Source of the DNA: an uncultured Ignavibacterium sp.
Lineage (GTDB): Bacteria; Bacteroidota; Ignavibacteria; Ch128b
Assembly: GCA_964454895.1 (NCBI GenBank)
Contig: CAYVTW010000011.1
Span: forward strand, 8,264 to 72,263
Direction of reading: 5' to 3'
DNA length: 64,000 bases
Shown: positions 2,724-25,169 of the stretch, piece after piece
How the letters are laid out: each line of letters starts with the position of its first letter
Position numbering within the stretch: the stretch's first letter is position 1
Made by a program: the position numbers and the translations under genes
Notes under the pieces: generated by a model
Told to the model about the DNA's origin: nothing
Databases searched by the model: none
Seen by the model: only the letters and a program-made list of their open reading frames with translations

Positions 2724-4679
2724 TTAATTTTTTTGATCTTGACTAAAAACTGTAATTAATGCATTTAACAGATCAGCTCGACGAACTGGTTTCGGTATAA
2801 ATATGATTCCCATTTCTTCTATTTGTTCTTTGAGTCCACTTAAAATATCAGCCGAAGTTGTTACAATCTTTAAAGTCTGAAGTTTTTCTCGCTTTCTAAT
2901 TTCTTTAATAACATCCATTCCTGGAATATCAGGTAACCTTAAATCCAGAACAATTCCATCATATTCTTCTGTGATAAGTTTATTTAAAGCAAGTTTACCT
3001 GAAAATACAGTTTCAACCTCACACTCTGGGAGCATCAATTTGAACAATTTATGATTGTATTCTTGATCATCAACAACAAGAATTCTCTTACCTTTAATAA
3101 TTGATAGATCTTTTGGAATTTGAACAACTTCTGCTTCTTCGATTTGCTCAGTTCTAGAAGCGGGATAAGTAAATGAGACAGTTGTTCCAACATTTTTCTT
3201 GCTTTCAATTATTATATCACCTTTCCATAGGTTAATAATTTCTTTTGAGATTGCAAGACCTAAACCCGATCCACCATATTTTTGTGATATTTCAGGTGCT
3301 TGTTCAAATGGAATAAAAAGTCGATTCAATTCTTCCTGAGTCATTCCAATTCCTGTATCGCTTATCTTAAATGTCAAAACTCCGTTATTGTAGCGAACAT
3401 CAACGGAGATTAATCCCTCATCAGTAAATTTGACTGCATTGTCGAGTATATTCAGTAGAACCCGTTGTAAGTTGTGTGCGTCAAGTAAGAAATAAGCATC
3501 TGGTTCAATGTTAGAGTTATAATCAAGGGCAACTTTTTTCCCAATAAGTTTTACTTCAATCATTGAAAGAACTGATTTCATCAAAGCAATTAAATTGTAA
3601 GGTTTCTCAATTATCTTGATTTTACTTGCTTCAGCTTTGGATAAATCCAAAATATCGTTCAAAACTTTTAGAAGATGTTCCGCACTTTTTTGAATGTAGG
3701 TTAAAAATTCTCTTACATCACCATCAATATCCATGCTTGAAAGAATATCCACATAGCCAAGAATAATATTTATAGGTGAACGAAGCTCGTGGGACATATT
3801 TGCCATAAATCTTGATTTAGTAGCGGCGAGTAAATCTTTTTGTTTAACGGTTTCTTCAAGTGCTCTGATGTATTCTCTTTCTTTTGTGAAATCATGAAAA
3901 GCAATTAAATAACATGGTCTTCTGTGATAGGTGATCTCAGATGGATAACAGTTTGTCCAGATTTTCATCTTATCATGATAACGCTGCATTTTTATTTGCT
4001 TTGGAAATGTATCGCTGCTTAAACCTTCAGAAAAAATTCTTTCAAGGACACTCACACTCTCAGCATCTATTAAATCCCAAATTTTTCTACCAAGATTTTC
4101 GCTGCTCGAAATTTGCAGCATTTCCATTCCTTTCCTATTAGTGAAAATAATATCATGTGTTTCCTTATCGACAATTAGGAGACCAATATTAATCTTATCC
4201 AATATTTCAGAGTGAACAAGTTGAAGTTGTTGAAATCTATCTTTGAAATTTTTCTCTTCGCTGATATCCCTAACTACTAACAAAAAATATAAACTTTTTT
4301 TTCCCTTGAGTTTGAAAGGATACAATGAAATATTTGTGAAAATTTCAGTTCCGTTCTTTGTCAATAAGTATGTTTCGTATTCGCTCAGAGACTTTTCAGA
4401 GAGTATCGAACGGATAATGGTGTTTCTTTCTTTTTCGAAATCGGAAATCAAAGATCCTATATGCTTCTTGGTTATACTCTTTTCACTGAAACCAAAAATT
4501 TTACTCGCAGCACCACCCCAGAATTCAATCAAACCTTTGGAGTTAATTATTATAAATGCTTCATTGGAGTTTTCTAAAATTGACTTATAGAAAGAGATAT
4601 CAAACTGTAATTGTCTGTTGGTAGATTTATTTTCTTGTTTAGTGACTTTTTTCATTGCTAAATACCATTTGATTTTCAA
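2724..4679 (-). CDS. Hybrid sensor histidine kinase (PAS-PAS-HisKA-HATPase_c-REC)
   Basis: H-box MSHELRSPINIILGY, G-boxes DTGIGM / GGSGLGLAISK, C-terminal receiver KRILVVDDQEYN...DGIVLDLRLPDIPG; two N-terminal PAS-like segments. Confidence 0.8.
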   Translation of the reverse strand: MKIKWYLAMKKVTKQENKSTNRQLQFDISFYKSILENSNEAFIIINSKGLIEFWGGAASKIFGFSEKSITKKHIGSLISDFEKERNTIIRSILSEKSLSEYETYLLTKNGTEIFTNISLYPFKLKGKKSLYFLLVVRDISEEKNFKDRFQQLQLVHSEILDKINIGLLIVDKETHDIIFTNRKGMEMLQISSSENLGRKIWDLIDAESVSVLERIFSEGLSSDTFPKQIKMQRYHDKMKIWTNCYPSEITYHRRPCYLIAFHDFTKEREYIRALEETVKQKDLLAATKSRFMANMSHELRSPINIILGYVDILSSMDIDGDVREFLTYIQKSAEHLLKVLNDILDLSKAEASKIKIIEKPYNLIALMKSVLSMIEVKLIGKKVALDYNSNIEPDAYFLLDAHNLQRVLLNILDNAVKFTDEGLISVDVRYNNGVLTFKISDTGIGMTQEELNRLFIPFEQAPEISQKYGGSGLGLAISKEIINLWKGDIIIESKKNVGTTVSFTYPASRTEQIEEAEVVQIPKDLSIIKGKRILVVDDQEYNHKLFKLMLPECEVETVFSGKLALNKLITEEYDGIVLDLRLPDIPGMDVIKEIRKREKLQTLKIVTTSADILSGLKEQIEEMGIIFIPKPVRRADLLNALITVFSQDQKN

Positions 4680-5846: not shown

Positions 5847-6542
5847 TTGAACGGTACCTTTTATATTGTTTCGACACATCTCGGAAATATTGATGATTTA
5901 GGTTTCCGTGCAAAGAGAGTTCTATCTGAATGTGATTATATAATTTGTGAAGAATTAAAGCCAGCCAGAAAGTTATTAAAACACCTTGGGCTATTCAAAG
6001 AATTAATTCAAATTAACGAGCACACAGAAAAAGAAAATTCAGCGATAGTAATACAACTCCTTAAAGAAGGTAAAAATTGTTGTTTGATTTCAGACACGGG
6101 CACACCAATTTTTTCTGATCCTGGAAATTACTTATTGAACTTAATTTATGCTTCAGATATCCCTGTATCCCTAATACCAGGCCCAGACTCTCTAATCCCC
6201 TCACTTATAATTTCCGGTTTTGATGTTAGTAAATTTTATTTTGCTGGTTGGTTATCTCCAAAATCAGATCAACGAAAAAAGCAACTGCAAGCACTCAAGT
6301 TCATTCAGAAGACAATAGCGTTGATGGACACTCCATATAGATTGAAGCAAGTATTACACGATATAAATGAAATTTTCGGTCCAGACACAATTATTTCTCT
6401 CGCCTGTGATTTAACAACGGAAAAAGAAAAAATTATCCGAGGTAAAGTTGTAGAAATTAATCGAATTGTAAATGAAGAAAATTTAAAGTGTGAGTTTGTC
6501 CTTGTAATTGGTAATCAAAAGAAGAAAAGGGAGTTAATTTAA
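5847..6542 (+). CDS. rsmI: 16S rRNA (cytidine1402-2'-O)-methyltransferase RsmI (tetrapyrrole-methylase fold)
   Basis: GTFYIVSTHLGNIDDLGFRAKRVLSECDYIICEELKPARKLLKHLGL matches the RsmI N-terminal signature (LYvVaTPIGNleDit.RA...L.evd.Ia.EDtR.t.kLL). Confidence 0.75.
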   Translation: MNGTFYIVSTHLGNIDDLGFRAKRVLSECDYIICEELKPARKLLKHLGLFKELIQINEHTEKENSAIVIQLLKEGKNCCLISDTGTPIFSDPGNYLLNLIYASDIPVSLIPGPDSLIPSLIISGFDVSKFYFAGWLSPKSDQRKKQLQALKFIQKTIALMDTPYRLKQVLHDINEIFGPDTIISLACDLTTEKEKIIRGKVVEINRIVNEENLKCEFVLVIGNQKKKRELI

Positions 6543-6550
6543 ACTCCCTT
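6527..6550. terminator. 9-bp-stem hairpin (AAGGGAGTT-aattta-AACTCCCTT) enclosing the convergent stop codons of rsmI (+) and the response regulator (-)
   Basis: Read directly from sequence; both stops (6540-6542 + ; 6539-6541 -) sit in the loop/stem; possible bidirectional terminator, though the flanking U-tracts are weak. Confidence 0.3.
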
Positions 6551-6919
6551 CAAACCTAAAGCATCCTTCACTTTTTCCATTAACGATTGGTAAGACACAG
6601 GTGATGTAACAAAATAATTTGCACCGAGTTGGAAGCAAAGCTCAACCACCTCTTTATCATTTAGTGCAGAAGCAACTATTACTTTTGTAATATTATTTTT
6701 TGAATTCGAGCGAATAGTTTTTAGTACTTCAAACCCGCTTACTTCTGGCATCATTAAATCTAAAATCACTAAATCGTATGTTTTTTCTGCAACCTTAGCT
6801 TTAGCTTCTTTCCCATTTGCTGCCGTATCTGCATCTAATCCCGCTCTTTTGAGATAATGCAAATGCATTTTTACTACTAAAGGATTGTCGTCTACAATAA
6901 GTATTTTATAATTATTCAT
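6539..6919 (-). CDS. Single-domain CheY-like response regulator receiver
   Basis: KILIVDDNPLVVKMH...DLVILDLMMPEVSGFEVLKTIR...KVIVASA: conserved DD / D(phospho) / T(S) / K receiver positions; no output domain (126 aa). Overlaps upstream gene by 4 nt (operonic). Confidence 0.8.
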   Translation of the reverse strand: MNNYKILIVDDNPLVVKMHLHYLKRAGLDADTAANGKEAKAKVAEKTYDLVILDLMMPEVSGFEVLKTIRSNSKNNITKVIVASALNDKEVVELCFQLGANYFVTSPVSYQSLMEKVKDALGLKGV

Positions 6920-8430
6920 TGTTCCTCTATTGGTAATTTTTGTTGCTGTGCTGTTGATTTATAAACTCTCCATTTTGGAGTTTGATATACTAAAGTAGTA
7001 AATTCAAATCCATTTTCAAAAGCATCTGGATACATAGCAGTTAGCTGATCAAAACCTGTTACAGTTAAATCAGGTCTTGGAACAACGATATAAGTTGCAG
7101 CAAATTGTGGTTGTTGTAATACTCTGATGTAATCGTATTGATATGGTAAATAAAATTGTTTTGGGCTTGAGTAGAAACAAACTATTGGATATCCAACTGC
7201 ATCATCAATCAGAATCATATCCTTCTCTGTAGTATTATCTTTCAAAAATTTTGCTACCTGTAGTTCTTCGTCAAAAATATCTTCAACAGGTTCACCTCTA
7301 AGCACAGTAGCGAAATTTTTTTCTGTAAGCTCAACTGAATTCTCTAAAGACTTGTAACCAAAAAATACAGATATGGCCATGATTATTATAACAACATAAG
7401 CATAAGCTGGTTTATATAAAGGTGAGTTAATAAAGTAATACATGATTATAATACTCAGAGGGATTAATACACCAAACCAGCTATAAGAAAGTGCAGAGAT
7501 ACCAAGAAATATAACAATAATTTGAAGAATGATTGGGGCGAATGCAGCAACAAAAATTGTAATTGTTCTAATAGTTGGTAGTGTGAAATAGTAGGCTGGA
7601 TATGTTATAAAGGACATCTTGAGCACTATCCATATTGACCAAATTAAATCACCTTTTCCTTGCGCAAGCTCAGGGCGTAAAGCCATTTCCTTTGAAACTT
7701 GTTTGAAATAGGAGTAGGGACTAAAATAAAAGTAAAAAGGTTCTCCGGCGAAAATCCAGTTCAAATAAACCCAAGAACCAAGAACAATAAAAGTTGGAAG
7801 AACTAGCATTAATGTAAGTGCAAATATTCTAACAACATTGAATTCAATTGTTTCGGATATTAGGAAAGGTGCAAATGGTATCAAAGCAAGGGTAAGGAAG
7901 AAAGTGTCGTATCTAATCCCTGACATAGCACCCAACGCTACACCAGATAATACTATGTAATAAGGTATTCTCGTTTCGTGAAATCTGAAAAATGAATAGA
8001 CAAATACCACAAAGAATAATACATAAAGTGTCTGACTTGGTTGAGCAAAGATTATATAAAGAAATACTGGATTAATTATCAACAATGCAGTAATTAATAA
8101 TTTCACTAAAGTATTTCCTGGTATCCACCGCAAATATCTTATACATAGAGTAATAACTAATGCACCCCAAAGAGTTGAAATTATCAAAGATGCCACAGGC
8201 GAGGACGATACAGCAAGAGGCAAATAAAAGAGATATGGCAGTGGAGGATAAATTAAACCGAGATTTTCCAACCTTGGTGGGTTACCTCTCATAGCTAGTT
8301 GGGCTTTCTCCATCAAAAAGATGCCTTCTTGAGCATAAAAATTAAAATTAAAGTAGAGATAAGCTCCCATTAAGAAAAGCCCAATCCATATAAAAAGAAA
8401 AATTATAATATCCCTTAGTTTTATTCCCAT
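6916..8430 (-). CDS. Polytopic inner-membrane protein, putative GT-C-fold glycosyltransferase (ArnT/PMT-like) with C-terminal periplasmic domain
   Basis: About 11-13 predicted hydrophobic helices over residues 1-350, then a soluble about 150-aa C-terminal domain; start ATG abuts the stop of the GT2 gene (8430/8431). Family assignment is inference from topology only. Confidence 0.4.
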   Translation of the reverse strand: MGIKLRDIIIFLFIWIGLFLMGAYLYFNFNFYAQEGIFLMEKAQLAMRGNPPRLENLGLIYPPLPYLFYLPLAVSSSPVASLIISTLWGALVITLCIRYLRWIPGNTLVKLLITALLIINPVFLYIIFAQPSQTLYVLFFVVFVYSFFRFHETRIPYYIVLSGVALGAMSGIRYDTFFLTLALIPFAPFLISETIEFNVVRIFALTLMLVLPTFIVLGSWVYLNWIFAGEPFYFYFSPYSYFKQVSKEMALRPELAQGKGDLIWSIWIVLKMSFITYPAYYFTLPTIRTITIFVAAFAPIILQIIVIFLGISALSYSWFGVLIPLSIIIMYYFINSPLYKPAYAYVVIIIMAISVFFGYKSLENSVELTEKNFATVLRGEPVEDIFDEELQVAKFLKDNTTEKDMILIDDAVGYPIVCFYSSPKQFYLPYQYDYIRVLQQPQFAATYIVVPRPDLTVTGFDQLTAMYPDAFENGFEFTTLVYQTPKWRVYKSTAQQQKLPIEEQ

Positions 8431-10362
8431 TTAGATTGTTCTCAAGATTTCTGGTTTTTTGACAGTTGTAACTCCATGAGTGGTCTTTTCCCAATAGAAA
8501 GGTTTGAAGATTAGTTGCCACAGAGCTTTATAGGCACCAAGTGAATGTAATATCCAATAAAATGGATTCAACAGAGCGTAAACCACAAGGCCATATAGTC
8601 TTCTTCTAAATACAGCAAGCATGTTCATGTAAACAACCATAGCATTTCCGATCAAGAGATTAAACAAAGAAATGTAAAGTACCCATGCTGGGAAAATTTC
8701 TGAAATCCATTGAGGTCTAAATATTAACCAAGTAATGAATAGAATCCATAGTGGTAGGTTAATTAGGAATGTTGCTGGGGTTCCACCAATGAATAGGAAG
8801 AATGCAAACATTCCTCTGAATCCAATTTTCTTATATAACTCAATTGGATTTCTCATGTGAACAAGGAAGGTCTGCATATAACCCTTAACCCATCTGGAAC
8901 GTTGGCGGATCCAGCTTCTAACTTTCTTGTTCGCCTCTTCATAAGTTGTTGAATTTATTGTTCCAACTTTATAACCTTTAGCATAAGCACGTACACCCAA
9001 ATCAGCATCTTCAGTAACATTAAATGGATCCCAAGCATTTAATTCAACTAACTTTTCCTTTATAAAATGATTACTTGTTCCTCCTAATGGAATTGGTACA
9101 TTTAACCTATCCATACCTGGTAACATATAGTCGAACCAGTATGAATATTCAAGAGTGAACATTTTGGTAAGAAAGTTTTCATTTGCATTGAAATAATTTA
9201 ATTGAGCTTGAATACAAATAACATCTTCAGGGAATTTTTTGAATCCAACAATTGCTTTTTTTAGTTGATCGGGTTCGGGGATGTCCTCAGCATCATAAAT
9301 CGTAACCACTTCTCCTCGACAAAATACTAAGCCATAGTTACACGCTTTCGGTTTTGTCTTTGGCTGCATATTAGGGACAACGATACATTCAAATATAGAG
9401 GGAATATCAAGATTTCGAATTTTATTAATTGTCGCAAAATCATCTTCCTCAAGTAAAATTTTTATATCAAGCTTATCTTTCGGATAATCAAGTTGACTTA
9501 ATGCATAAATTAATGTTTCAATCACTTCAGGTTCTTTATAAACAGGGAGAAGAATACTATAGACCGGCAAATCTTCGTCATGAAGTTCTCGGATTTCTGC
9601 TTGAGTTACAGCTTCGTATAATTCGAATCTAGCACCGGCAAGAGTTAGTACAAATTTAAAGCCGATCGAGAATAAGTAGAGCAGATTTACTATTGCCATC
9701 AATATTGTGAAAGTAACAGCAGCATTAATTGAAACACCAATGATAAATGCTGTTCCGAGTAAAGCAATTAAAATTACCTGAGGTAGAGTGAATGTTTCTA
9801 TAGCTGAACTTCTTTCATCTTCAATGAAGAGGCTATAGACAGCACTTTCTGCTAATTCTTGACCAAATGCTTTATGGAGAACCCATTGAATATCAACATC
9901 TGTGGCATAAAAGATTTTCAGTGTTGATTGACTTTTTTCAAATATATAATCAATCGATTCTTCATCCAAAGGATTTATCATCGCGACATAAATATAGTCA
10001 CCATTTCTCTTAAATGGGCAAATAAGTTTATCCTGTAAGTATGTTTGATCAAAAGACATTAAAAGTTCATAATCGATCTCTTGAGTTAATAAATCAACTT
10101 TACCAACTGGAACAGCTTTTCTAATTACAGTTTCATAATCTTTTCTAGAAATAAAACCATAAAAAAGAAGTGCTTTAGGAAAATAAAGCTTTTCTCTTTC
10201 AGCAAATGCTTCTATTTCCTCAATTTTTTCTTGAGAGAAAACTCTTTCATTTATTAAAACTTTTTGCAACGCCTTTTTTTCAAGACTGGAACCAGAGCCC
10301 GAGCTTGAAAGCTCGTCCGGCACCAACATCTCGTCCAAAGGCGTCCACGCTGTATCCGACAT
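8431..10362 (-). CDS. Processive family-2 glycosyltransferase, cellulose-synthase (BcsA)-like, with N-terminal GspE_N/MshEN-type domain and no PilZ domain
   Basis: GT2 catalytic motifs in order: YDAEDIPEPDQL (DxD), NVTEDADLGVRA (TED), QRSRWVKG (QxxRW); 2 TM helices before and about 4 after the catalytic domain; C-terminus ends after the last TM helix (no PilZ RxxxR/DxSxxG). The N-terminal 190 aa align to the T2SS-E N-terminal domain pattern (ELLMSFDQTYLQDKLICPFKRNGDYIYVAMINPLDEESIDYIFEKSQSTLKIFYATDVDIQWVLHKAFG). Confidence 0.7.
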   Translation of the reverse strand: MSDTAWTPLDEMLVPDELSSSGSGSSLEKKALQKVLINERVFSQEKIEEIEAFAEREKLYFPKALLFYGFISRKDYETVIRKAVPVGKVDLLTQEIDYELLMSFDQTYLQDKLICPFKRNGDYIYVAMINPLDEESIDYIFEKSQSTLKIFYATDVDIQWVLHKAFGQELAESAVYSLFIEDERSSAIETFTLPQVILIALLGTAFIIGVSINAAVTFTILMAIVNLLYLFSIGFKFVLTLAGARFELYEAVTQAEIRELHDEDLPVYSILLPVYKEPEVIETLIYALSQLDYPKDKLDIKILLEEDDFATINKIRNLDIPSIFECIVVPNMQPKTKPKACNYGLVFCRGEVVTIYDAEDIPEPDQLKKAIVGFKKFPEDVICIQAQLNYFNANENFLTKMFTLEYSYWFDYMLPGMDRLNVPIPLGGTSNHFIKEKLVELNAWDPFNVTEDADLGVRAYAKGYKVGTINSTTYEEANKKVRSWIRQRSRWVKGYMQTFLVHMRNPIELYKKIGFRGMFAFFLFIGGTPATFLINLPLWILFITWLIFRPQWISEIFPAWVLYISLFNLLIGNAMVVYMNMLAVFRRRLYGLVVYALLNPFYWILHSLGAYKALWQLIFKPFYWEKTTHGVTTVKKPEILRTI

Positions 10363-11113
10363 ATCCTGACATGTGTTTGTTGAACTTATAAACTATTGCT
10401 GGTTCAATTTTCAATAATGAAAAATCAAGATTCCTTAAAAATATTTGACTAAAAGTCAAATTTTGATCTACTTTATCATGATTTCCTAAACCTAAAATCA
10501 AACTTGTTGAAAAAAGTATAGTAACTCTTCTCGTAATATTTAAGCCAATAGTTCCACCCGCTCTTAATTGGTCTGATGGTGCTTCGAATCTTTTTCTAAT
10601 ACCAAAATAAATTTCCCAGAATCCTTGAGACATAGTCCTCCCAAACGGAGAACCGACAAGTGCTGTAACTTGCAAATCTACTTGTCCATTACCGAGTGGT
10701 GGATCACCAGGATTAGTGTAAAATGGAAAGGCAACTAAAAATTGCAAAGCAAGACTTGGAATATCTCTGCTCAACTGAAATTGTAGCCCTACTTCTTGAT
10801 CTCCAAAACCTCCATTGGTAATCAATCCGATACTATCACGATAGCTTAACCCATAATAAAACATATTAGCTAAAAACATTATATCATCATCAAGGCCGTA
10901 CTCATAATAAAGATTTGTTTCATACTTTGTAAAAATTCCTCCAAGTGGTAGAAAAAATCTTTCTCCATTTCTGTTAAAAATTGTTTCAGAAGAGTAAAAC
11001 GATTGAACGCCTGATAGAAAATACCTGTTCGTTTTCTGTTGCCATACACTGGCTTGCAGATTAACTATTAAGAATACAACTAATAACAATGGGTTAAAAA
11101 AGAATTTAACCAC
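10280..11113 (-). CDS. Small outer-membrane beta-barrel protein (porin-like); start uncertain, probably non-ATG near 11113
   Basis: Track ORF 10280..11167 overlaps the upstream gene by about 60 nt; a signal-peptide-like segment KFFFNPLLLVVFLIVNLQA starts about residue 19; alternating amphipathic beta-strand pattern and C-terminal ...LGLWFQS; 3' end overlaps the GT2 start by about 80 nt. Confidence 0.4.
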   Translation of the reverse strand: MVKFFFNPLLLVVFLIVNLQASVWQQKTNRYFLSGVQSFYSSETIFNRNGERFFLPLGGIFTKYETNLYYEYGLDDDIMFLANMFYYGLSYRDSIGLITNGGFGDQEVGLQFQLSRDIPSLALQFLVAFPFYTNPGDPPLGNGQVDLQVTALVGSPFGRTMSQGFWEIYFGIRKRFEAPSDQLRAGGTIGLNITRRVTILFSTSLILGLGNHDKVDQNLTFSQIFLRNLDFSLLKIEPAIVYKFNKHMSGYVGYSVDAFGRDVGAGRAFKLGLWFQS

Positions 11114-13205
11114 GGGCAATTCTAACTCCTCTTCTACTTCTTGTGTAAAGCAAAATAGATAAACCAATGATTATAATCCAAGCAATAATAATCCAAATGT
11201 ATTTGAATTTATCCCATTGGATACGGACTGGGACTTTTTCAACAGGTTGCGTATATAAAATTTTGTCAAGCGCTTCCGCTGTTTTGAAGACGAGTGGATA
11301 ATCAGCCCCACTCATAATAGCGACATTTCCATCTATATTGCCAATCCTTTGGCTAAATTGATCTGCAAGTTTGACAAGATATCCTTTCCCTTCCTGACCA
11401 TAGCTCGACACAAGAAGTACATTATTGCTTGTTAATGTCTTAGTTAATTGCATAACCGCAATAGGCATGTTGTCAGAGTACTCGAACATAACTTGCCTAG
11501 TAGAACTACTTATTATTTTAAAACTCTGACTTAAATCCAGCGGAAGATACTCGAATGAGTCTTTATTGTATTTAACGTCAGAAGATACAACAATATAATT
11601 GTTATTTGAATTTTCCATAGTTGCAAACATCTCTGCAAATGACATTATCGGAGGAAAGTATTGTTCCTGTTTAGATATTTTTTGAATTGCGTTAATTATC
11701 GAGGCTGCAGCTTGAATATGTTCAGGAAGTGGATTCGATTGAAATACTACATACGTATTAGTTAAAAATGAATTCGGGAAGTTATTGAAGTTTGATGCCT
11801 TATCCACATTTTCGGCAGTTACATCAAAGTATGAGTAAGAATAAACCTCGCCGACAAATTGAGTTAAATCATCTCGACATTCGCCTTCATCTGGAAAGTA
11901 ATTAAATTCAATTTCAAAAGCGTTAATTTTTTTAAATAGATATTTTGGAAGTTGAACCACTAAACCGTTAATTGTTCCTGTGTGGTCAAGTCTTTTACTT
12001 TCTATCAGAACATCGTTCAGATAAATGTTAATAAACCCATTTTGAAAATTTTGCCTGACTGGAGTGTATTTAGAGTACATGTAAAAATCTACAGAACCGA
12101 TAAATTTAGCCAATTCAAGTTCAGATATAAACATTGTAATTCTTAAACTACCTATTCCTTTAGTCTGAATTCTTTCAAATCCTAATTCATCTAAAGTTAA
12201 TCTATATTTATTACCAACGAAAGATTTAATTTTGAAAGGCTCTATGTATCTTACCAACGAAAAATTTGAAAGTAATTTATGATACTGTTTCGGATTAACA
12301 ATTGCAGCAGCAGATTTTTGAACCGTTTTATCATTATCACCTGTGACATATAAAATCTTTGTCCCGTTGATAATCCTGACAAATAACAACCCATCTTCAG
12401 TGGTGAATTGTTGTTTAGCCTGGTTAATTATTTCTGCTCTCTCGATCGAATACGGAACTGGAAGACTTAATAATTCATCTGTTTTACCAACTGCAATAAC
12501 ATGAGTGAAATCATTTATTTTATTTGGATCAATTTCTTCGAAGCTTCCATAAAAAATATTTTCCGATTTTACTAAATCGAGTATCCTTGCATTTAACCAC
12601 ATCACATTTCCAGCTAGAACTGGATTCATTCTCTTTGGAGTTAGTATAAGGATACGATCAAATTTATCACTAAGAAAATCTGCAATAGTATTCTTCAATT
12701 TCTCTGAATAACTTAGAACCAACTTAGATTTTTGTCTAATGACAATCCAAAGGCCTTGTGTAGCTAAGTCTCTACATCTATCATCTGTTATATTCAAGTA
12801 GCCACCAACTTCAATTTTCAAAAGTGGTTTTTCACTTATCAACAAATCTTCAAGTTTCACATCATTCAGAGGAATACGAATTATTGGATTTGCAGAAATA
12901 TTTTTGAAAAATGTTGTATACACAGGAACATCATTGATAGAAATCTTTAGATTTGAATAATCACTTAAAATTGTCGAAAAACTTGCGTGTAATTCAAAAT
13001 AACTATTTTGAAAATCTATACCTCCTCTTGGAACTGGGAAAAATAATACTTGGGCAGGTGTAATCCCATAAAGAACTATATCCTTCTGATACCCAATATC
13101 TTTTAATGAAATCTCCTTAAAATTTTGTGCATGAGAAAAACTCAGAAATACTTGCAATAAGATAGAAATAAAAAGAAAAGAAATACGCCTACTATTTTTA
13201 TTCAT
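11106..13205 (-). CDS. bcsB: Cellulose synthase regulatory subunit BcsB homologue (periplasmic, C-terminal TM anchor)
   Basis: Signal peptide, about 640-aa periplasmic region and a single C-terminal TM helix (YIWIIIAWIIIIGLSILLY-TRSRRG), as in BcsB. The segment DDRCRDLATQGLWIVIRQKSKLVLSY matches the conserved BcsB block (E. coli QDVCENPASTTLWLDVGRSSGLDLTY) position by position. Confidence 0.6.
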   Translation of the reverse strand: MNKNSRRISFLFISILLQVFLSFSHAQNFKEISLKDIGYQKDIVLYGITPAQVLFFPVPRGGIDFQNSYFELHASFSTILSDYSNLKISINDVPVYTTFFKNISANPIIRIPLNDVKLEDLLISEKPLLKIEVGGYLNITDDRCRDLATQGLWIVIRQKSKLVLSYSEKLKNTIADFLSDKFDRILILTPKRMNPVLAGNVMWLNARILDLVKSENIFYGSFEEIDPNKINDFTHVIAVGKTDELLSLPVPYSIERAEIINQAKQQFTTEDGLLFVRIINGTKILYVTGDNDKTVQKSAAAIVNPKQYHKLLSNFSLVRYIEPFKIKSFVGNKYRLTLDELGFERIQTKGIGSLRITMFISELELAKFIGSVDFYMYSKYTPVRQNFQNGFINIYLNDVLIESKRLDHTGTINGLVVQLPKYLFKKINAFEIEFNYFPDEGECRDDLTQFVGEVYSYSYFDVTAENVDKASNFNNFPNSFLTNTYVVFQSNPLPEHIQAAASIINAIQKISKQEQYFPPIMSFAEMFATMENSNNNYIVVSSDVKYNKDSFEYLPLDLSQSFKIISSSTRQVMFEYSDNMPIAVMQLTKTLTSNNVLLVSSYGQEGKGYLVKLADQFSQRIGNIDGNVAIMSGADYPLVFKTAEALDKILYTQPVEKVPVRIQWDKFKYIWIIIAWIIIIGLSILLYTRSRRGVRIARG

Positions 13206-13268
13206 TACTTTAACTCCTTAATCTAACTACTGCATATATAATAAGATACAAGATAAAAGTCAAGTATT

Positions 13269-14678
13269 TCAAGAAAAAATTTTTAGTATGGCAATATTTT
13301 CAATGTGGTAGGTTTGAGGGAATAAATCGATAGGTTGCAAAAACTCAATTTTGTAGGTTCTCTTAAATTTTGCCAAATCCCTTGCTTGGGTAACAGGATT
13401 ACAACTTACATAAATAAAAATAGATGGTCTTATTCTAAGGATGGATTCAATTGTTTTCTCACTCATCCCAGATCTGGGGGGATCTGCAATGACAATTATA
13501 TTTTTATCGATTAAATTCTCATCAATTTTAAAACCTTCATTTAGATTTCTTTGATAGAAAAAAATATTTTCAAGATTATTCAATTTGGCATTTCTCTTTG
13601 CAGCTATAACTGATTCTTTTATATCTTCAAATGCAATTACTTTGTCAAAAAATTTAGACAATAGTATTCCAAAAACCCCGACTCCACTGTATAGATCTAT
13701 CAAAACACGCTCCTTTGATTCGATATTATTATTAAATTCATTTTTCAATAAATTGATTATGAATTGAAACAATCTTTCAGCCTGTTTTGTATTGGTTTGG
13801 AAGAATGTATTCGGATAGATCTCAAAATCATAATCCAATAATTTTTCATAAATATAACCTCGACCAAAAATGGTAATAAAATTTTCGGGTAATGTCGAAC
13901 TAATATCAGGACTACTTATTACATTAACGAAAGTAGTTATATCAGGAAAATTTTTTTTAAGTACTGATGCTAATCCGGACATAATTTTTTCATCATATTT
14001 TGTAGAGACAATACCAATCATCTTCTCTGGAGTATTTTTAGACTCTCTTATTAATAATGCTTTTAACAAACCTGAACGATTTTTAAGGGAATGAATAGAG
14101 ACATCCGCGTCAAAAAGAATTTTGCCTATAAAATTCCTAATTTTATTGGAGAATTCTGATTGGAGATAACACTCGTCAAGATGAATTACTTTTTCGTATT
14201 GCTTGGGAATATGTAACCCAAGTGCAAATTCTTTTTCCTTTTCGGAATATGAGATATTTTCGAATAACCATCGTTTAGCAAACGAGAATTCCATTTTGTT
14301 TCGATAAAAATATTCATTATCAGATGGAATTACATCATTAATCTTAACACCAAATATTTTGGAAATTCTTTCAAAAGCTTCTTCAACGAAGTCTCTTTTA
14401 ATCTTTAACTGTTCCTCGTATTTAAGATCTTGAAGTTTGCATCCACCGCATAAACTAAAATATTTGCAAATCGGATGAATTCGTGAAGGTGAACTCTCAA
14501 TAATTTCAATAGCTTGGGCTTCAATATAATCCTTTTTGATTTTTCTTATTCGTGCTTTCACAAGTTCATTCGGAAGACACTTATCAATTAGAACTATTTT
14601 CCCTCCAATTCTACTTAGACATATACCTTGATTGACCATTTTTTCTGTTCTGATAATTATTTCATCATTTTTTTTCAT
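13269..14678 (-). CDS. rlmD: 23S rRNA (uracil-C5)-methyltransferase RlmD/RumA (TRAM + 4Fe-4S + class I SAM MTase)
   Basis: N-terminal TRAM domain, Cys cluster CKYFSLCGGCKLQDL...C, SAM motifs DLYSGVGVFG and ADPPRSG, catalytic region FDVDLFPQTYHIE-like C-terminus. Confidence 0.8.
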   Translation of the reverse strand: MKKNDEIIIRTEKMVNQGICLSRIGGKIVLIDKCLPNELVKARIRKIKKDYIEAQAIEIIESSPSRIHPICKYFSLCGGCKLQDLKYEEQLKIKRDFVEEAFERISKIFGVKINDVIPSDNEYFYRNKMEFSFAKRWLFENISYSEKEKEFALGLHIPKQYEKVIHLDECYLQSEFSNKIRNFIGKILFDADVSIHSLKNRSGLLKALLIRESKNTPEKMIGIVSTKYDEKIMSGLASVLKKNFPDITTFVNVISSPDISSTLPENFITIFGRGYIYEKLLDYDFEIYPNTFFQTNTKQAERLFQFIINLLKNEFNNNIESKERVLIDLYSGVGVFGILLSKFFDKVIAFEDIKESVIAAKRNAKLNNLENIFFYQRNLNEGFKIDENLIDKNIIVIADPPRSGMSEKTIESILRIRPSIFIYVSCNPVTQARDLAKFKRTYKIEFLQPIDLFPQTYHIENIAILKIFS

Positions 14679-14827
14679 TTCTTACCTGTAATATTTTCTT
14701 ATTACTGTAATTTCCACAAATGAAATTTCTTTCATCTACAAATTTCAACAATTTTTTACAACTTTTTAGCAGGTATTATTATTGATTATAATCATGGTTT
14801 CCCAAAACTCTTCTGAACCTCCTTTTA

Positions 14828-14858
14828 GCCCGGTACTTCGATACCGGGCTCTTTTTTA
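14828..14858 (+). terminator. Strong Rho-independent terminator (GCCCGGTA-cttcga-TACCGGGC + TCTTTTTT) with no protein-coding gene upstream on this strand
   Basis: Perfect 8-bp GC-rich stem, 6-nt loop and U-tract read directly; the reverse orientation lacks a U-tract. All neighbouring genes to the left are on the minus strand. Confidence 0.55.
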
Positions 14859-15186
14859 AATATAATTTCTTTATGAATATCATAGCGGTTTGCTTCACAA
14901 CTAGTCCATTTGCTCCAAAAATCAACAAATAAGATTGAAGTTATAATTTCAAACAATAAATCTACTTTGAAATTAAAGTAAAGCTAAACTTCATATAATA
15001 AAATTTAAAGGTTCATTCATTTCAAAATAAAACACCTCTCAAATTGAAACACTCTAAAGAAATAAAACCATCAAAAACTGACAAAAATTTCAGCTTAATA
15101 AGGGGCATAACAATTGGCATTTAATAACTAATGAAAAAGTTTTCAAAAAAATCATTAGCAATAATTAAAAATTCATGGAGGTTAAC

Positions 15187-18100
15187 ATGAAACCTTTGAT
15201 ACAAAATCAATTCTGGCCAATAATCAAGTTAGTGGTGAGTTTTTTAATGATTATTGGCCTCATTTTCCCCACGAACTCAAATGCACAGAGTTCAAACTGT
15301 GACTTAAGTAAATTTGTCACATATACGCAAGGTGGTTGGGGAAACAAAGGAGGGAAAACTTGTAGTGGGGTTACGTTCATTACTGTTAAACAACTTGAAA
15401 CTGGAGCCGAGGTTTCAAAAGGTAATGGGACGGATAAACTTGGCTCAAATACAACTTTCACTTTCCCTAATGGTAAATCCGTAGTAATTCACACTTCTTG
15501 CTCACAACCTATCTATATAGGAATGACAGTTACAGCCGATGGATTTACTTACAAAATAACTCAACTCACAACAATTCCCTCCTCGACTACTTCTAATCCA
15601 GGAACAATCAGGGATTTATATTTTTCGGATGTATTCCCAACTGGTTTAGAAGTTGGAGGAATTTACAAACTAAAATTAACTTCTGCTTACGCAGTGGAGA
15701 AATTTTTACCCCAAGGTGGAAGTCCAAAAGCATTGGATAAAAACTACACTGACCCAACTAGCACGAAAGCAGGAGTTTTTGCGGGCCAAGTTGTGGCTCT
15801 TAAAATGAATGTTGCTTTTAATGATGCGGGTAAGATTGGTAGTGGTCCAGTTAAACTTGGTGATTTAATCGTTACAGCAGGACCTCTAGCAGGTAAGACA
15901 GTTTATCAAGTATTAGACTTAGCAAACATCGCACTTGGTGGTGGAACTACTCCATATACAATTTCGCAATTAAATGAAGCAGTAACCGATATTAACGAAA
16001 ATTTCAAAGATGGTAAGTACAATAAAGGTTTCTTAAGGTGCCCAGATTTACCGCAACTTGGTTCAATCTCCGGAACAGTTTTCTTCGATGTTAATGGTGA
16101 TGGAACCATGAATAACGATGAATTTGGGCTTCCAAATGTAAAAGTATACCTCTATTCAAATTCAATTTTAATCGATTCTACCTTTACAAACGAATCAGGA
16201 TTTTACAAATTTTCAAATCTGAATGCTGGAAATTACAGCGTAAAGGTTGTTGATCCATACATGTTGATATTAACAAATCCACCAAACCCAAAATCAGTAA
16301 TTCTTGCAAGTGGTGAAGCTAAGAACAACATTAATTTTGGTTACAAATGTGGTCAGCAACTTGCAAAAATTTCGGGTTATGTTTATGTGGATGCAAATCT
16401 TAATGGAATAAAAGATCCTGGCGAAGCACCACTAGCTAATGTAACAATCAAACTGTATGATCAAGATGGTGTAATAATAGGAACTACAACTACAAACTCG
16501 AGTGGATACTATGAATTCAGTGGATTAATTCCTGGAATTTATACTATTGAAGAAATAGACCCTGATCTATACAGAAGCACAACACCAAACTATATAAATC
16601 TTACACTATTAGCTGGACAACATTCACAGAATAATAATTTTGGTGATATACTTTCAGCTGATATTTGTGGGATGGTTTTCAACGATGAGAATGGTGATGG
16701 AGTTAGACAACCTTCTGAGTTAGGTATATCTGATGTTTTAATTGAATTATTTGAAATGCCATCGGGTAGTTTTGTCGCTTCAACAATAACTGGTGTCAAT
16801 GGTGAATATTGCTTTGGCTATTTAATTCCTGGAACTTACAAAATTAAACAGACCGATTTACCAGGATATATAAGCACAACTCCGAATGAAATAGTTAGAA
16901 CAGTAAATCAAGGCGATAAGAGTTATAACAACAATTTCGGTGATAAAATCGTAACGATTATGAAAGGTTCGATTGGTGATTTTGTGTGGAATGATTTGAA
17001 TAAAAATGGAATACAAGATCCAGGTGAACTCGGAATGCCAAATGTGATTGTTAAGCTTTACGATTGCAGCAACAACTGGATTAAAGAAATTACAACTAAC
17101 TCTAATGGATACTACAAATTTGATAGTTTAAATCCGGGTTCATATCAGATACTTATTCAACTACCATCTGGATATGCATTTTCACCAGCAAATCAGGGCT
17201 CTGATGATACAAAAGACTCAGACATAGATCCTTTAACCTGGAAATCACATTGCATTAGTTTACTAAGCGGACAAAATATTACTAATGTAGACGCTGGAAT
17301 ATATGAATTACCAACTTGCTCGATTGGTGACAGAGTATGGAATGATTTGAATAAAAACGGTATACAAGATGCTGGTGAGCCAGGTGTACCCAATATAAAA
17401 GTTAAACTTATCAGTTGTTCAACTTCTAATGTAGTTGCTATAACCACAACTAATTCTAGTGGAAATTATGTTTTCAATAATATTCCTTCGGGAAATTATC
17501 AAATTAAATTCTATGATTTACCGAATAATTGGGTATTTACTACAAAGGATGCTGGTTCAAATGACTTAATCGATTCCGATGCAGATCCATCAACAGGAAT
17601 GACCATTTGCTTCAATGTTGATCAATTCAATTGTGACAGCAATTCAACAAGGTGGGACGCTGGTATTTATTTCAATCCACCACAGCAATTTTGCTCAATT
17701 GGTGATAAAGTTTGGGAAGACTTAAATATAAATGGTATTCAGGATCCTAATGAGCCTGGAGTTGCGAATATAAAAGTGACTTTATTCGCTTGCTCTACAT
17801 CTACACCTATTGATGTAAAATATACAAATGCACAAGGTAATTATCTCTTTTCAAATGTTCCTGCTGGAAATTATTATATCAAATTTGAAAATATACCAAC
17901 CGGTTATGCTTTCACATTCAAAGATGTTGGATCTAATGATTTACTTGATTCAGATGTAGATCCATTAACGGGTAAGACAGCATGTTTCCCAGTTGATCCC
18001 AATGATTGCGAAAATAATTCTGTAAAATGGGATGCTGGAATTTATATCTGCCCACCAACATTTGAAGTCAGTGGTATGGTATTTAATGATTTGAATGGTA

Positions 18101-24036: not shown

Positions 24037-25169
24037 TTTAAGTACTCCATCTTTTTTGACTCATTATAATCACCAATTTGAATTGAGTATATGTATGTCC
24101 CACTACTCAAACGATAATAATATCCGTCTAACTCAATTTGATGATAACCATCAGAGTTTATTTGTTGAGTTAGCTTTGTAATTTCTCTACCAAGAGTATC
24201 AGTAACTCTGAATGTTAATGTTTTACCAACAAAATCTTTAGGAATAAAATATCTTATTTGAGTTGAGTAATTAAATGGATTAGGATAATTCTGATATAAT
24301 ATAAACTTTGTTGGTATTAAACTTAATTCTTCAACCAAGGTTTGTGGAAGAGCTGGACTTCCTGCATTAATCCAGGCAGTGTAAATCAAAGAACCAAGTC
24401 GATTACTCGCTTTTTGAAAAAGATATTTTGTGAATGTTGACGAGTTGTTCCACAAGTGTAAATAGTAAGTTTCGCTGCTTGTATTCCCAGCAATTGATTT
24501 CGCAATACTGTCTGCTCTTAAAACATCATCAAGATATGAATAAGATTCAAATAAATAATTGAAAATAAACTCAAGAGGATTTTGAATATAAGTGACAGGT
24601 TCTGTTGAGAAAGTGAATGAGCTTTGATAACGATTAATCATTTGCGTTTCGTATCTCGAATGAATTCCTTTTTGACCTGTGAATTGACCATCGTAATTTC
24701 TAGTGATATGCAATGGTTGATGCCCATCAGCTACATAGTGACCTAAATCAGCTGCAATTAATTTTGCTCTATCCCAATCTCTTCTTTGTAATGCTGAAGT
24801 TAAAGAATCAAGCGTATTCTTAGTTGCCCAAGGAAGTATTCCTTGCTGCCAGACATAATCCCAACCATATCTCGCAATTAAAGTATCAATTGAATAAGGG
24901 AAATTACCCGTAAAAAATTCTTGATAATTATCTATATCGATATAATGCTTATTTCCTTCAGTTGGATCAGAACCTTTTCTATAATCAGCATCTGATGCGT
25001 GTTGCGCTAAAAATTCTGCCCAAAGATGATAACCAACCATCTCAGGTGGAAAATGTTTGGTAGAATTTCGATTAATTAAACTGTGCCCAACGCTTCCCCA
25101 ACCAAATATTTCTCTTGCAACTACAAATAAAAATATTATTGAAAAAGAAATAGAAATCAATCTCTTCAT
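24033..25169 (-). CDS. Secreted S1/P1-family zinc nuclease with T9SS C-terminal domain
   Basis: Signal peptide then WGSVGHSLI (N-terminal Trp/His zinc ligands of S1/P1 nucleases), ...DADYRKGSDPTEGNKHYIDID, HQPLH; C-terminus LYQNYPNPFNYSTQIRYF...GTYIYSIQ (T9SS CTD). Overlaps GH13 gene by 4 nt. Confidence 0.7.
   Translation of the reverse strand: MKRLISISFSIIFLFVVAREIFGWGSVGHSLINRNSTKHFPPEMVGYHLWAEFLAQHASDADYRKGSDPTEGNKHYIDIDNYQEFFTGNFPYSIDTLIARYGWDYVWQQGILPWATKNTLDSLTSALQRRDWDRAKLIAADLGHYVADGHQPLHITRNYDGQFTGQKGIHSRYETQMINRYQSSFTFSTEPVTYIQNPLEFIFNYLFESYSYLDDVLRADSIAKSIAGNTSSETYYLHLWNNSSTFTKYLFQKASNRLGSLIYTAWINAGSPALPQTLVEELSLIPTKFILYQNYPNPFNYSTQIRYFIPKDFVGKTLTFRVTDTLGREITKLTQQINSDGYHQIELDGYYYRLSSGTYIYSIQIGDYNESKKMEYLK

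Follow-up and report, generated by a model that had tools for sequence, protein, structure and literature searches.

Fusions of a GT2 glycosyltransferase with an MshEN domain are known from several described systems. The 2016 MshEN paper lists proteins with this domain at the N-terminus, among them XCC0678 of Xcc, whose motif spans residues 14–92. In E. coli, NfrB is a GT2 that carries MshEN at its C-terminus, and its activation by c-di-GMP has been proven (PMC8669469, PMC8669472). In Xanthomonas, the xagABCD genes have been described, with XagB being XC_3555 (Tao 2010 as cited in PMC3364877; PMC3609779); EPS and biofilm depend on xag genes, which are up-regulated in rpfG mutants, in a c-di-GMP-rich regulatory network (PMC3364877; PMC3609779). 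The stalk-forming iron oxidisers Mariprofundus and Ferriphaselus have the sfz1–sfz6 / sfb1–sfb4 "stalk formation" clusters (Koeksoy 2021, PMC8250860), and the naming bcsB-xagB-xagC-xagD has also been used, with no xagA homologue beside it (Kato 2015, PMC4643136).

The locus considered here, in a window of 64,000 nucleotides (the whole stretch of DNA that was analysed), is an Ignavibacteria copy of this known Xag/Sfz-type exopolysaccharide synthase cassette and, apart from one modest twist, an ordinary member. Orthologues of its GT2 occur in more than 600 species genomes across many phyla. The GT2 aligns with Sfz2 over 610 aa (BLASTP, 41% identity, E = 4e-146), and its close homologues are annotated by JGI as "glycosyltransferase XagB"; XCC0678 can be aligned with the orthologues from Proteobacteria. 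Bacteroidota, Kryptonia, Aquificota, Chloroflexota, Proteobacteria, and Synergistota all have loci with the gene order BcsB-like, (OMP), GT2, GT-C-like. What the sequence-only reading had called atypical, a BcsB-like gene ahead of the synthase and no BcsC, is what the cassette shows as a rule across phyla. The novelty of the arrangement is not supported either, since the described xag and sfz cassettes have this architecture and gene order and MshEN-GT2 fusions have been published.

Genes of the cassette

As the sequence-only reading had it, five tightly packed, co-directional open reading frames span 6539–13205, all on the minus strand (Table 1). The BcsB-like and OMP genes overlap by 14 nt and the OMP and GT2 genes by 50 nt (83 nt with the longer GT2 start), the GT2 and GT-C genes abut directly, and the GT-C and receiver genes overlap by 4 nt. 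These overlapping and abutting genes, together with a 3′ hairpin (10-bp stem, 6-nt loop), speak for an operon. The hairpin is the probable operon end; because the consensus scan yields sites no more frequently than in shuffled sequence, its position is the sole argument for a terminator.

Table 1. Positions in the window of the cassette genes and associated features
Feature	Position	Strand	Basis and remarks
BcsB-like periplasmic subunit, 699 aa	11106..13205	-	Pfam, BLASTP to Sfz1, hydrophobic segments; Sfz1 homologue
Small probable outer-membrane beta-barrel protein, about 279 aa	10280..11119	-	Signal peptide, orthologues; Sfz5 homologue
Processive membrane-integrated GT2 synthase	8431..10362	-	XagB/Sfz2 orthologue; 643 aa from first ATG
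GT2 N-terminal MshEN-fold domain	9820..10281	-	Residues 17-170, 632-aa numbering; c-di-GMP motif degenerate
GT-C-fold polytopic membrane protein, 504 aa	6916..8430	-	C-terminal periplasmic domain; Sfz3 ("XagC-like") homologue
Single-domain CheY-like receiver, 126 aa	6539..6919	-	Response_reg match
Terminator-like hairpin, T-rich tail, at receiver stop codon	6526..6551	-	Consensus scan
Hybrid histidine kinase (PAS-PAS-HisKA-HATPase-REC)	2724..4679	-	Pfam; ~1.9 kb downstream of operon

The 699-aa protein is indeed a BcsB homologue, matching Pfam BcsB (PF03170, E = 1.4e-24), and aligns with Sfz1 in two colinear segments (BLASTP, E = 3e-9 and 1e-8). Its hydrophobic segments, residues 8–26 and 670–688, are an N-terminal signal peptide and one C-terminal membrane anchor. 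Most of the 82 related loci encode a homologue of it upstream of the GT2.

The longest reading frame of the OMP starts at 11167, but translation most likely begins at a TTG at 11119, which has GAGGAG 6 nt upstream and gives a 279-aa protein. The signal peptide reads ..LIVNLQA|SVWQQ, and an aromatic residue is found near the C-terminus, with orthologues ending in F. Orthologues directly upstream of the GT2 occur in Pedobacter, Flavobacteriaceae, Deltaproteobacteria, Aquificota, Synergistota, and Kryptonia, most of them ending in an aromatic residue, and a profile of 12 orthologues matches Sfz5 (21.6 bits, per-sequence p of about 9e-9). Matches to outer-membrane barrels are weak (4rl8, E = 0.11; porin 8xua, E = 0.23), as is a DUF5777 match in one of ten orthologues. 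The protein has no match in Pfam or NCBIfam. The signal peptide, the aromatic residues at or near the C-terminus, and the weak barrel matches are indirect support for the small beta-barrel proposed earlier, which probably lies in the outer membrane.

For the 504-aa protein, which had been read as GT-C-like and polytopic, Pfam gives a weak PMT_2 match (E = 0.009) that recurs in 3 of 16 orthologues (best E = 7e-7). The Foldseek PDB top matches of its AlphaFold model (pLDDT 84.9, pTM 0.87) are exclusively GT-C enzymes, namely STT3, DPY19, AftA, ArnT (TM about 0.5; 5f15, TMq 0.53), ALG9, Pmt4, and PglB, and the GT-C fold is accordingly backed by the predicted structure. The protein also aligns with Sfz3 (BLASTP, 23% over 456 aa, E = 1e-15), and in most related loci a gene of this kind comes immediately after that of the GT2. 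It may be non-catalytic, because no acidic residue of the first periplasmic loop is universally conserved among the orthologues.

The N-terminal domain of the synthase

In close relatives, the GT2 starts at M12 (window position 10329), which would give 632 aa. In the 643-aa form, Pfam detects Glyco_trans_2_3 (E = 1.4e-20), Glyco_tranf_2_3 (E = 1.4e-17), and, at residues 85–171, the T2SSE_N/MshEN domain PF05157 (E = 8.7e-11), with no PilZ even at E = 0.1. A soluble N-domain is followed by two helices, the GT domain, and four helices, and the catalytic signature D, DxD, TED, Q(R)xRW is intact. With the NCBIfam NfrB model the GT2 reaches 19.5 bits, the cut-off being 1170. By fold, the N-domain is a true MshEN domain, in which an alpha/beta subdomain follows a four-helix bundle. 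All clade members retain it, with invariant residues of the clade's own (G58, R62, P105, P120, D122, D144, W149, and G156), so that it evidently does something. The synthase-dependent EPS module with MshEN in place of PilZ, as put forward in the sequence-only reading, is retained, but not the c-di-GMP binding by this protein.

With the register set by phmmer and by hhalign, the VcMshE residues R9/G11/G18/L29/Q32/R38/G40/Q61 correspond to A/Q/R/E/A/Y/P/A in this GT2, and the relaxed published MshEN motif is found in none of 121 sequences (the query and 120 close homologues). The hydrophobic pattern partly survives (L10, L14, V15, I19, V20, L44, G47, and L58 equivalents). MshEN holds its ligand mainly by hydrophobic interactions and by backbone amides. 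The key-position scores of this GT2 are 5/14 and 0/6, those of Aquificota, Chloroflexota, Thiobacillus, Gamma- and Deltaproteobacteria, Synergistota, Sfz2, and XCC0678 being 11–13/14 and mostly 4–6/6. The 82 sampled cluster representatives are bimodal, 64 motif-intact and 18 degenerate, and the sampled Ignavibacteria-Kryptonia-Bacteroidota clade has all the Arg/Gly/Gln determinants replaced and the helix-bundle core kept. The backbone region of G11 and G40 contacts the guanine Hoogsteen edge (PMC5013675), and these glycines are removed here by Gln and Pro, respectively. Substitutions comparable to these are found in XpsE, a published c-di-GMP non-binder (PMC5013675). As to other c-di-GMP inputs, the GT2 has no C-terminal extension, and neither a c-di-GMP riboswitch nor, among the window ORFs scanned, a GGDEF, EAL, or HD-GYP gene was found.

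Because all the Arg/Gly/Gln determinants are replaced, we conclude from the sequence that this GT2 would not be c-di-GMP-gated through the canonical MshEN site, while a weak or non-canonical mode may exist. For the protein family as a whole, such gating is a sound idea, since 64 of the 82 representatives, Sfz2, and XCC0678 keep the motif. Given the widespread cassette and GT2, the published MshEN-GT2 proteins, and the c-di-GMP-activated NfrB, the sensor looks ancestral and lost in this lineage. With these determinants replaced, a new c-di-GMP switch in this organism is unlikely.

Mechanism and alternative explanations

The CheY-like receiver noticed earlier is confirmed by Response_reg (E = 5.7e-26). 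Its D10/D11, D54, and S84 align with D12/D13, D57, and T87 of CheY; S106 occupies the position of K109, so that the conserved lysine, normally needed for phospho-activation, is absent. All four Ignavibacteria orthologues read ..F(V/I)TSP.., and their genes stand at the cassette end (loci L001–L004), each with the 4-nt overlap. Among the loci compared, the Kryptonia ones have no receiver gene at this position and those of other phyla mostly lack it. In Lustribacter (L065), a receiver-containing gene comes right after a motif-degenerate GT2; receivers or kinases also occur near motif-intact loci, e.g., L073. The hybrid kinase, a candidate phosphodonor of the receiver, has the same neighbourhood in an 87%-identical relative and is separated from the operon by two opposite-strand housekeeping genes. 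The receiver is a possible replacement input for the synthase.

The explanation that we consider probable is a member of the Xag/Sfz-type EPS cassettes whose synthase lacks canonical MshEN c-di-GMP gating. Homology and modelling identify the parts (GT2, anchored BcsB-like protein, GT-C-fold protein, and probable barrel), and BcsA-BcsB, hyaluronan synthases, and other synthase-dependent systems provide the analogies for the steps. The GT2 would polymerise a nucleotide-sugar at the cytoplasmic face and pass the chain through its own channel, and the BcsB-like subunit would take up the chain in the periplasm, where the GT-C-fold protein may modify or handle it; the small barrel would be its outer-membrane passage. 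In most of the family, a motif-bearing MshEN presumably gates the synthase, as in NfrB. The N-domain here would survive as a structural or protein-interaction module, and it is a speculative, rather doubtful step that in Ignavibacteria the translationally coupled receiver supplies the replacement input, possibly fed by the hybrid kinase. The receiver link is one of gene adjacency in one lineage, with Lustribacter as a second case.

That c-di-GMP, bound by the MshEN domain of this GT2 in place of PilZ, opens the synthase allosterically is unlikely: the fold is genuine, the motif is kept in most family members, the hydrophobic core positions and G47 are retained, and NfrB is a GT2 activated through MshEN (PMC8669469), but R9, G11, Q32, R38, G40, and Q61 are all replaced, G18 and L29 have become Arg and Glu, the relaxed motif is missing throughout the close homologues, the Hoogsteen-edge glycines are gone, and XpsE with similar changes does not bind (PMC5013675). 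We regard as very improbable a divergent but genuine bcs operon making beta-1,4-glucan with unusual accessory genes. It would account for the BcsB-domain partner, but the NCBIfam models give 62.6 bits for CelA against a cut-off of 699 and 35 bits for the BcsB equivalogs against cut-offs of at least 750, and PilZ, BcsC, and BcsZ are all absent. The GT-C-fold partner is always in the cassette and is not in bcs operons. The GT2 core is equally near hyaluronan synthases and PcManGT, the sugar specificity being unreadable from sequence, and the C-terminal motif is WEKTxHG instead of FxVTxK, the BcsA gating loop.

Rather doubtful, too, is a repurposing of the N-domain to bind a different small molecule or a protein, in Ignavibacteria perhaps the phosphorylated receiver, which would shift synthase control from a second messenger to a phosphorelay. 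The clade-specific invariant residues, the receiver overlap in four of four Ignavibacteria loci, the hybrid kinase conserved nearby, and the receiver-containing gene directly 3′ of the GT2 in Lustribacter, a second motif-degenerate lineage, are consistent with it, and in type II secretion ATPases the equivalent subdomain is a protein-binding module. Against it, the Kryptonia and Bacteroidota domains are equally degenerate in cassettes without a receiver, and the receiver lacks the conserved lysine.

Comparison with known systems

Taken as a member of the Xag/Sfz-type cassettes, the locus differs from BcsA-BcsB in having no PilZ, BcsC, or BcsZ, another transmembrane layout, a GT-C-fold partner, and the WEKTxHG motif, with scores below the NCBIfam equivalog cut-offs. 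It shares with NfrB-NfrA-YbcH a processive GT2-MshEN fusion in a synthase-dependent secretion operon, but the MshEN of NfrB is C-terminal and fully conserved, whereas here it is N-terminal and degenerate, and the partners of NfrB are the TPR-barrel NfrA and YbcH rather than BcsB-like and GT-C-like proteins. The XpsE/GspE N-domain of Xanthomonas (PDB 2D27/2D28) belongs to a secretion ATPase, which attaches to the inner-membrane platform; its equivalent here is fused to a polysaccharide synthase. The likeness to xagABCD is one of the GT2, the accessory genes being putative counterparts, and XCC0678 retains 11/14 of the motif compared with 5/14 here.

In the sfz clusters, as here, the gene of a BcsB-like protein (Sfz1) comes before that of a GT2 that begins with a type II secretion E-type N domain (Sfz2). 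After it comes the polytopic Sfz3 (roughly 500 aa), the counterpart of the GT-C-like protein, and Sfz5 (roughly 290 aa) is that of the OMP. Sfz2 carries near-perfect, repeated MshEN motifs, of which this GT2 has none, and Sfz4 (a glycosyl hydrolase) and Sfz6 have no counterpart here. Unlike those clusters, which are found in stalk-forming iron oxidisers, the present locus is from an Ignavibacteria heterotroph, places the OMP gene between the BcsB-like and GT2 genes, and has the receiver gene appended.

The operon and its surroundings

The five genes are packed as an operon on the minus strand, and the five-gene locus with the parts named in the sequence-only reading is confirmed with small corrections to its coordinates (see the table). 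The gene of the BcsB-like protein runs into the start of the next gene, that of a small putative outer-membrane protein (OMP), whose most likely start is a TTG codon with GAGGAG 6 nt before it. The OMP gene in turn overlaps the glycosyltransferase (GT2) gene in a different frame, by 50 nt when the GT2 is read from Met12, the start used in its closest relatives, and by 83 nt when it is read from the first ATG. This overlap covers the codons of the last presumed β-strand of the OMP and the first codons of the GT2, and it is retained in an 87%-identical relative. The GT2 gene abuts directly the gene of the 504-aa membrane protein. The latter shares 4 nt with the receiver gene, whose stop codon carries a hairpin with a T-rich tail.

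Coordinates of the features discussed in the text (window positions unless a locus is named)
Feature	Positions	Strand
Operon, five ORFs	6539-13205	-
OMP/GT2 gene overlap, from Met12	10280-10329	
GT2 start at Met12	10329	
TTG start of the OMP gene	11119	
Promoter-like site TTTACA-16-TATTAT	14755-14782	+
Divergent intergenic region with promoter-like site and hairpin	14755-14860	+
GC-rich hairpin and T-tract	14827-14850	
1,810-aa T9SS cargo	15175-20607	+
T9SS cargo, alpha-amylase	21220-24036	
378-aa ORF	24033-25169	-
T9SS cargo	32226-34454	
1,216-aa E2-E1 protein	34585-38235	-
2,292-aa ORF	51089-57967	-
795-aa ORF	61453-63840	-
Kryptonia locus L083, region discussed	10440-12921	
Kryptonia locus L084, region discussed	10443-15685	

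The operon is flanked by housekeeping genes, with a TrmA/RumA-like methyltransferase gene upstream and, on the opposite strand at the other flank, RsmI-like and class IV aminotransferase genes. Past these, about 1.9 kb downstream of the operon, a gene of a PAS-PAS hybrid histidine kinase is recognized by Pfam. The eleven genes of this neighbourhood recur in the 87%-identical relative. The nearest genomes by GT2 identity are those of the Ignavibacteria MAG SKW60 (95%) and of an Ignavibacterium album MAG (81%), and one database homologue of the 504-aa protein (P0121) is 100% identical to it. The window has a G+C content of ca. 33% and also encodes cargo proteins of type IX secretion (T9SS) and a nusA-infB-truB-ribF-pnp block.

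Some further features of the window can be mentioned here. A promoter-like site lies between the TrmA-like gene and the divergent gene of a 1,810-aa T9SS cargo, and it is followed ca. 45 nt downstream by a GC-rich 9-bp hairpin with a T-tract, a region that is 80-85% conserved in three Ignavibacteria loci (L001, L002, and L004). This element may act as a small RNA or as a leader/attenuator; upstream of the operon, Rfam returned chance-level matches only, on a hairpin. In the 1,810-aa protein, whose gene lies next to the operon and divergent to it, SdrD_B is repeated seven times and a T9SS C-terminal sorting domain is present. The 87%-identical relative has this gene in the same position, and the table lists two more T9SS cargo genes of the window. 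In the 1,216-aa protein, a complete 2-oxoglutarate dehydrogenase E1 is fused to the catalytic domain of an E2-type acyltransferase (residues 94-326), an architecture known chiefly from the actinobacterial OdhA/Kgd proteins. At E 1e-4, Pfam recognizes nothing in the 795-aa and 378-aa ORFs.

The five proteins and the Xag/Sfz cassette

In the Pfam search, the 643-aa protein matches Glyco_trans_2_3 (E 1.4e-20) and, over residues 85-171, the MshEN/T2SSE_N domain (PF05157, E 8.7e-11), and no PilZ domain is found in it even at E 0.1, just as had been read from the sequence. An AlphaFold model built from 18 homologues is confident (pLDDT 86.4, pTM 0.85) and shows, in this order, a soluble N-domain (residues 17-170, pLDDT ca. 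94), a pair of long membrane helices, the GT-A domain, and then interface helices together with four further membrane helices. The fold matches that of BcsA, and the processive core D, DxD, TED, QxxRW is present, its signature being invariant across the family (LEEDD 293-297, YDAED 345-349, VTED 438-441, and QRSRW 476-480). A C-terminal WEKTxHG at 613-619 is likewise invariant in the family and reads WEKTTHG in the window protein; the chain stops 13 residues further on, which leaves no room for PilZ or for a C-terminal binding domain of the BgsA type. The scores against the NCBIfam models CelA (62.6 vs a cut-off of 699.1 bits), PRK11498 (51.6 vs 992), and the PgaC equivalog (42 vs 422 bits) are far below the cut-offs, and the protein is therefore a BcsA-like processive synthase rather than a BcsA.

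The 699-aa protein matches BcsB (PF03170, E 1.4e-24). With its signal peptide and one anchor at the C-terminus it shares the topology of BcsB, and it is remote from true BcsB (35.2 vs 750 bits for the NCBIfam equivalog); a sequence search of solved structures with it gave no match. For the 504-aa protein, Pfam returns only a sub-threshold PMT_2 match (E 0.009), and a search of solved structures with its profile returned none, so that the fold is settled by structure prediction alone. The model (pLDDT 84.9, pTM 0.87) has the GT-C layout of a polytopic N-terminal module and a periplasmic C-terminal domain, and its significant Foldseek matches are solely GT-C enzymes (STT3, DPY19, AftA, ArnT, ALG9, Pmt4, and PglB), at probability 1.00 and TM of ca. 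0.5 (ArnT 0.53/0.50). Because of these matches and of the PMT_2 match in 3 of the 16 orthologues (up to E 7e-7), the protein is confirmed as GT-C-like at the level of the predicted fold. Its first periplasmic loop carries a conserved (E/S)K dyad, which is E41-K42 in most orthologues and has Ser in place of E41 in Thiobacillus and in one gammaproteobacterial orthologue. Full conservation among the orthologues is limited to P62, P121, N224, and D409, and since no acid of this loop is universally conserved in them, catalysis by the GT-C-like protein is not assured.

The small OMP, a 295-aa ORF of which 279 aa remain from the TTG start, has no Pfam match. It has a signal peptide and the C-terminus ..GLWFQS, which is ..WFSF or ..IIRF in the orthologues. 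The profile of the OMP weakly matches 4rl8 (E 0.11) and a porin (E 0.23), and DUF5777 is found in one orthologue. The protein is likely a β-barrel, judging from its sequence. The 126-aa protein is a CheY-like receiver (PF00072, E 5.7e-26) in which D10/D11 and D54 align with D12/D13 and D57 of CheY, Ser84 is kept, and Ser106 (..YFVTSP..) stands at the position of CheY Lys109, as it does in all four Ignavibacteria orthologues.

The cassette proves to be one already described in the literature, and the locus is an ordinary member of its family. Compared with the Sfz proteins of Mariprofundus PV-1, taken from the supplement of Koeksoy et al. 2021, the window GT2 aligns with Sfz2 over 610 aa at 41% identity (E 4e-146), and two colinear segments of the BcsB-like protein match Sfz1 (E 3e-9 and 1e-8). 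Over 456 residues, the GT-C-like protein aligns with Sfz3 (E 1e-15), and the small OMP profile matches Sfz5. The name "glycosyltransferase XagB" is given by JGI to several close homologues of the GT2. The BcsB-like gene keeps its place directly upstream of the GT2 in most related loci, and the position of a gene of a ca. 500-aa polytopic protein (Sfz3/XagC-like) directly downstream is also conserved. The published xagABCD is a Xanthomonas EPS/biofilm operon in which XagB is XC_3555 and whose mutants lose EPS and biofilm (PMC3364877; PMC3609779). A bcsB-xagB-xagC-xagD cluster was reported in stalk-forming iron oxidisers (Kato et al. 2015, PMC4643136) and renamed sfz1-6 by Koeksoy et al. 2021 (PMC8250860), who describe Sfz2 as an N-terminal type II secretion E-type domain joined to a GT2 domain. 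The MshEN-GT2 combination was known as well, being listed among the glycosyltransferase fusions of Wang et al. 2016 (PMC5013675), whose census includes Xanthomonas XCC0678 with the motif at residues 14-92. With both the xag/sfz cassettes and the MshEN-GT2 fusions published, the architecture is not novel.

The same holds for the gene order, which had been called atypical: the order BcsB-like, [OMP], GT2, GT-C-like recurs across phyla and is thus the norm of the family. A scan of one genome per species finds an orthologue in more than 600 genomes, belonging to Bacteroidota, Synergistota, Aquificota, Chloroflexota, Cyanobacteria, Eremiobacterota, and Proteobacteria, while Kryptonia homologues were found through protein search. 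An exhaustive profile search with a threshold of E 1e-30 yields at least 2,553 protein clusters. Few synthase-dependent polysaccharide systems are as widespread as the Xag/Sfz cassette and as little characterised; it is linked to biofilms in Xanthomonas and, by genomics alone, to iron-oxide stalks.

Two variants of the layout were also considered. Many members (P0162-P0201) are longer, at 1,220-1,335 aa, and in these the canonical MshEN-GT2 unit is preceded by 600-700 additional residues. A BcsB-GT2 fusion in the members of 1,250-1,330 aa, which would have spoken for a physical complex, was rejected, as BLASTP identifies the extra residues as more MshEN-like repeats and finds no BcsB. A 903-aa homologue (P0157), in which an OMP homologue follows the GT2 (E 2e-17), was set aside as fusion evidence, being a probable merged gene call. 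In the Kryptonia loci, the cassette is followed by genes of an HlyD/MFP-like adaptor, a VTC-domain protein, a DUF4956 protein, and a CotH-domain T9SS cargo.

Loss of the c-di-GMP motif from the MshEN domain

The homology of the GT2 N-domain to MshEN is not in doubt: the profile of the clade matches the N-domains of MshE and PilB with 98.6% probability (E 1.3e-15, 138 columns), and the fold is a four-helix bundle with an α/β subdomain. The ligand-binding motif of MshEN consists of two tandem 24-residue repeats, RLGxx(L/V/I)(L/V/I)xxG(L/V/I)(L/V/I)xxxxLxxxLxxQ, of which Wang et al. also give a relaxed form. In the register obtained independently by phmmer and hhalign, the residues of VcMshE are replaced in the window GT2 as follows: R9 by A, G11 by Q, G18 by R, L29 by E, Q32 by A, R38 by Y, G40 by P, and Q61 by A. 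XpsE, a published non-binder, has a comparable list of substitutions (PMC5013675). An alignment-free search with the relaxed motif, which did find it in the MshE and PilB controls, gave no match in the query or in any of 120 homologues of at least ca. 50% identity, from Ignavibacteria, Kryptonia, and Bacteroidota.

Orthologues from other phyla have a near-perfect motif, e.g., RLGEALVARGLLTQQDLNRALEYQ in Thermomicrobium; an Anaerolineales orthologue has both repeats and Sfz2 three or more. The proteins were scored at 14 key positions, and separately at six Arg/Gly/Gln determinants, as given below, XCC0678 being represented by a 79-aa fragment. For 82 cluster representatives that carry the domain and were sampled without bias, the key-position scores are bimodal, 64 being at 9 or higher and 18 at 7 or lower.

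Conservation of the c-di-GMP motif in MshEN domains
Proteins	Key positions (of 14)	Arg/Gly/Gln determinants (of 6)
MshE	14	6
Aquificota, Chloroflexota, Thiobacillus, Sfz2	13	5-6
Delta- and Gammaproteobacteria, Synergistota, Sporomusaceae, XCC0678	11-12	3-5
Cyanobacteria, Lustribacter	7-8	1-2
43 Bacteroidota	4-7	0-1
Window GT2 and Ignavibacteria relatives	5	0

From these sequences, we conclude that the c-di-GMP site was probably ancestral in the synthase family and lost in the lineage of the window. The family divides cleanly into members with the motif intact and members with the motif erased, the latter including all sampled Bacteroidota, Kryptonia, and Ignavibacteria. The suggestion that the N-terminal MshEN domain takes the place of PilZ as the c-di-GMP gate is accordingly supported in part: it describes the family well, but the very protein for which it was made contradicts it in its sequence. 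Across phyla, the catalytic core of the GT2 is 60-65% identical and the N-domain only 20-32%; conservation persists in the core of the helix bundle (L14, V15, I19, V20, L44, G47, and neighbouring positions) and at several residues specific to the clade, which indicates that the N-domain remains under selection for some role.

The split between intact and erased motifs is the point worth carrying forward, as it supplies matched positive and negative proteins for testing the gating of synthases by MshEN. It also calls for caution, in that the presence of PF05157 does not make a protein a c-di-GMP receptor.

Possible inputs to the synthase and comparison with known systems

If BcsA-BcsB and other synthase-dependent systems are taken as the model, the GT2 would polymerise the chain and translocate it, and the BcsB-like subunit would guide it through the periplasm. 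The GT-C-fold protein may act on the chain at the periplasmic face, and the small OMP would export it, as in synthase-dependent systems. Other c-di-GMP inputs were sought nearby. No c-di-GMP riboswitch is found in the whole window at the Rfam gathering threshold, and no GGDEF, EAL, HD-GYP, or PilZ domain in its scanned ORFs, a set that excludes the 2,292-aa ORF and a few short ones. A literature search on c-di-GMP signalling in Ignavibacteria yielded nothing usable.

It is conceivable, if rather improbable, that the Ignavibacteria receiver replaces the lost c-di-GMP input, perhaps being fed by the neighbouring hybrid kinase. Among the sampled loci, a receiver at the end of the cassette is found only in Ignavibacteria, and one other lineage would fit, Lustribacter (L065), where a receiver-containing gene follows a GT2 with a degenerate motif. 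However, the cassettes of Kryptonia (L083 and L084) and of Bacteroidota contain no receiver, and receivers or kinases occur near motif-intact loci as well. With only two lineages fitting and counter-examples at hand, we keep this idea as speculation. A broader version, to which we give even less credence, is that throughout the lineage of the Fibrobacteres-Chlorobi-Bacteroidetes (FCB) group (Ignavibacteria, Kryptonia, and Bacteroidota) the MshEN domain, its c-di-GMP determinants gone, now serves as a docking or gating module, the input in Ignavibacteria being the lysine-less co-translated receiver together with the hybrid kinase. If true, this would be a natural rewiring of the second-messenger switch of a synthase to a phosphorelay through the same domain.

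Among known systems, the c-di-GMP-activated glycosyltransferase NfrB of E. coli also combines a GT2 with MshEN (PMC8669469). The window GT2 scores 19.5 vs 1170 bits against the NfrB model NF008411, with the match confined to the MshEN part. NfrB has NfrA and YbcH as partners, whereas the window locus lacks a TPR-barrel gene, and the order of the domains is reversed: in NfrB the GT2 is followed by a C-terminal MshEN, while in the window protein the MshEN domain precedes the GT2.
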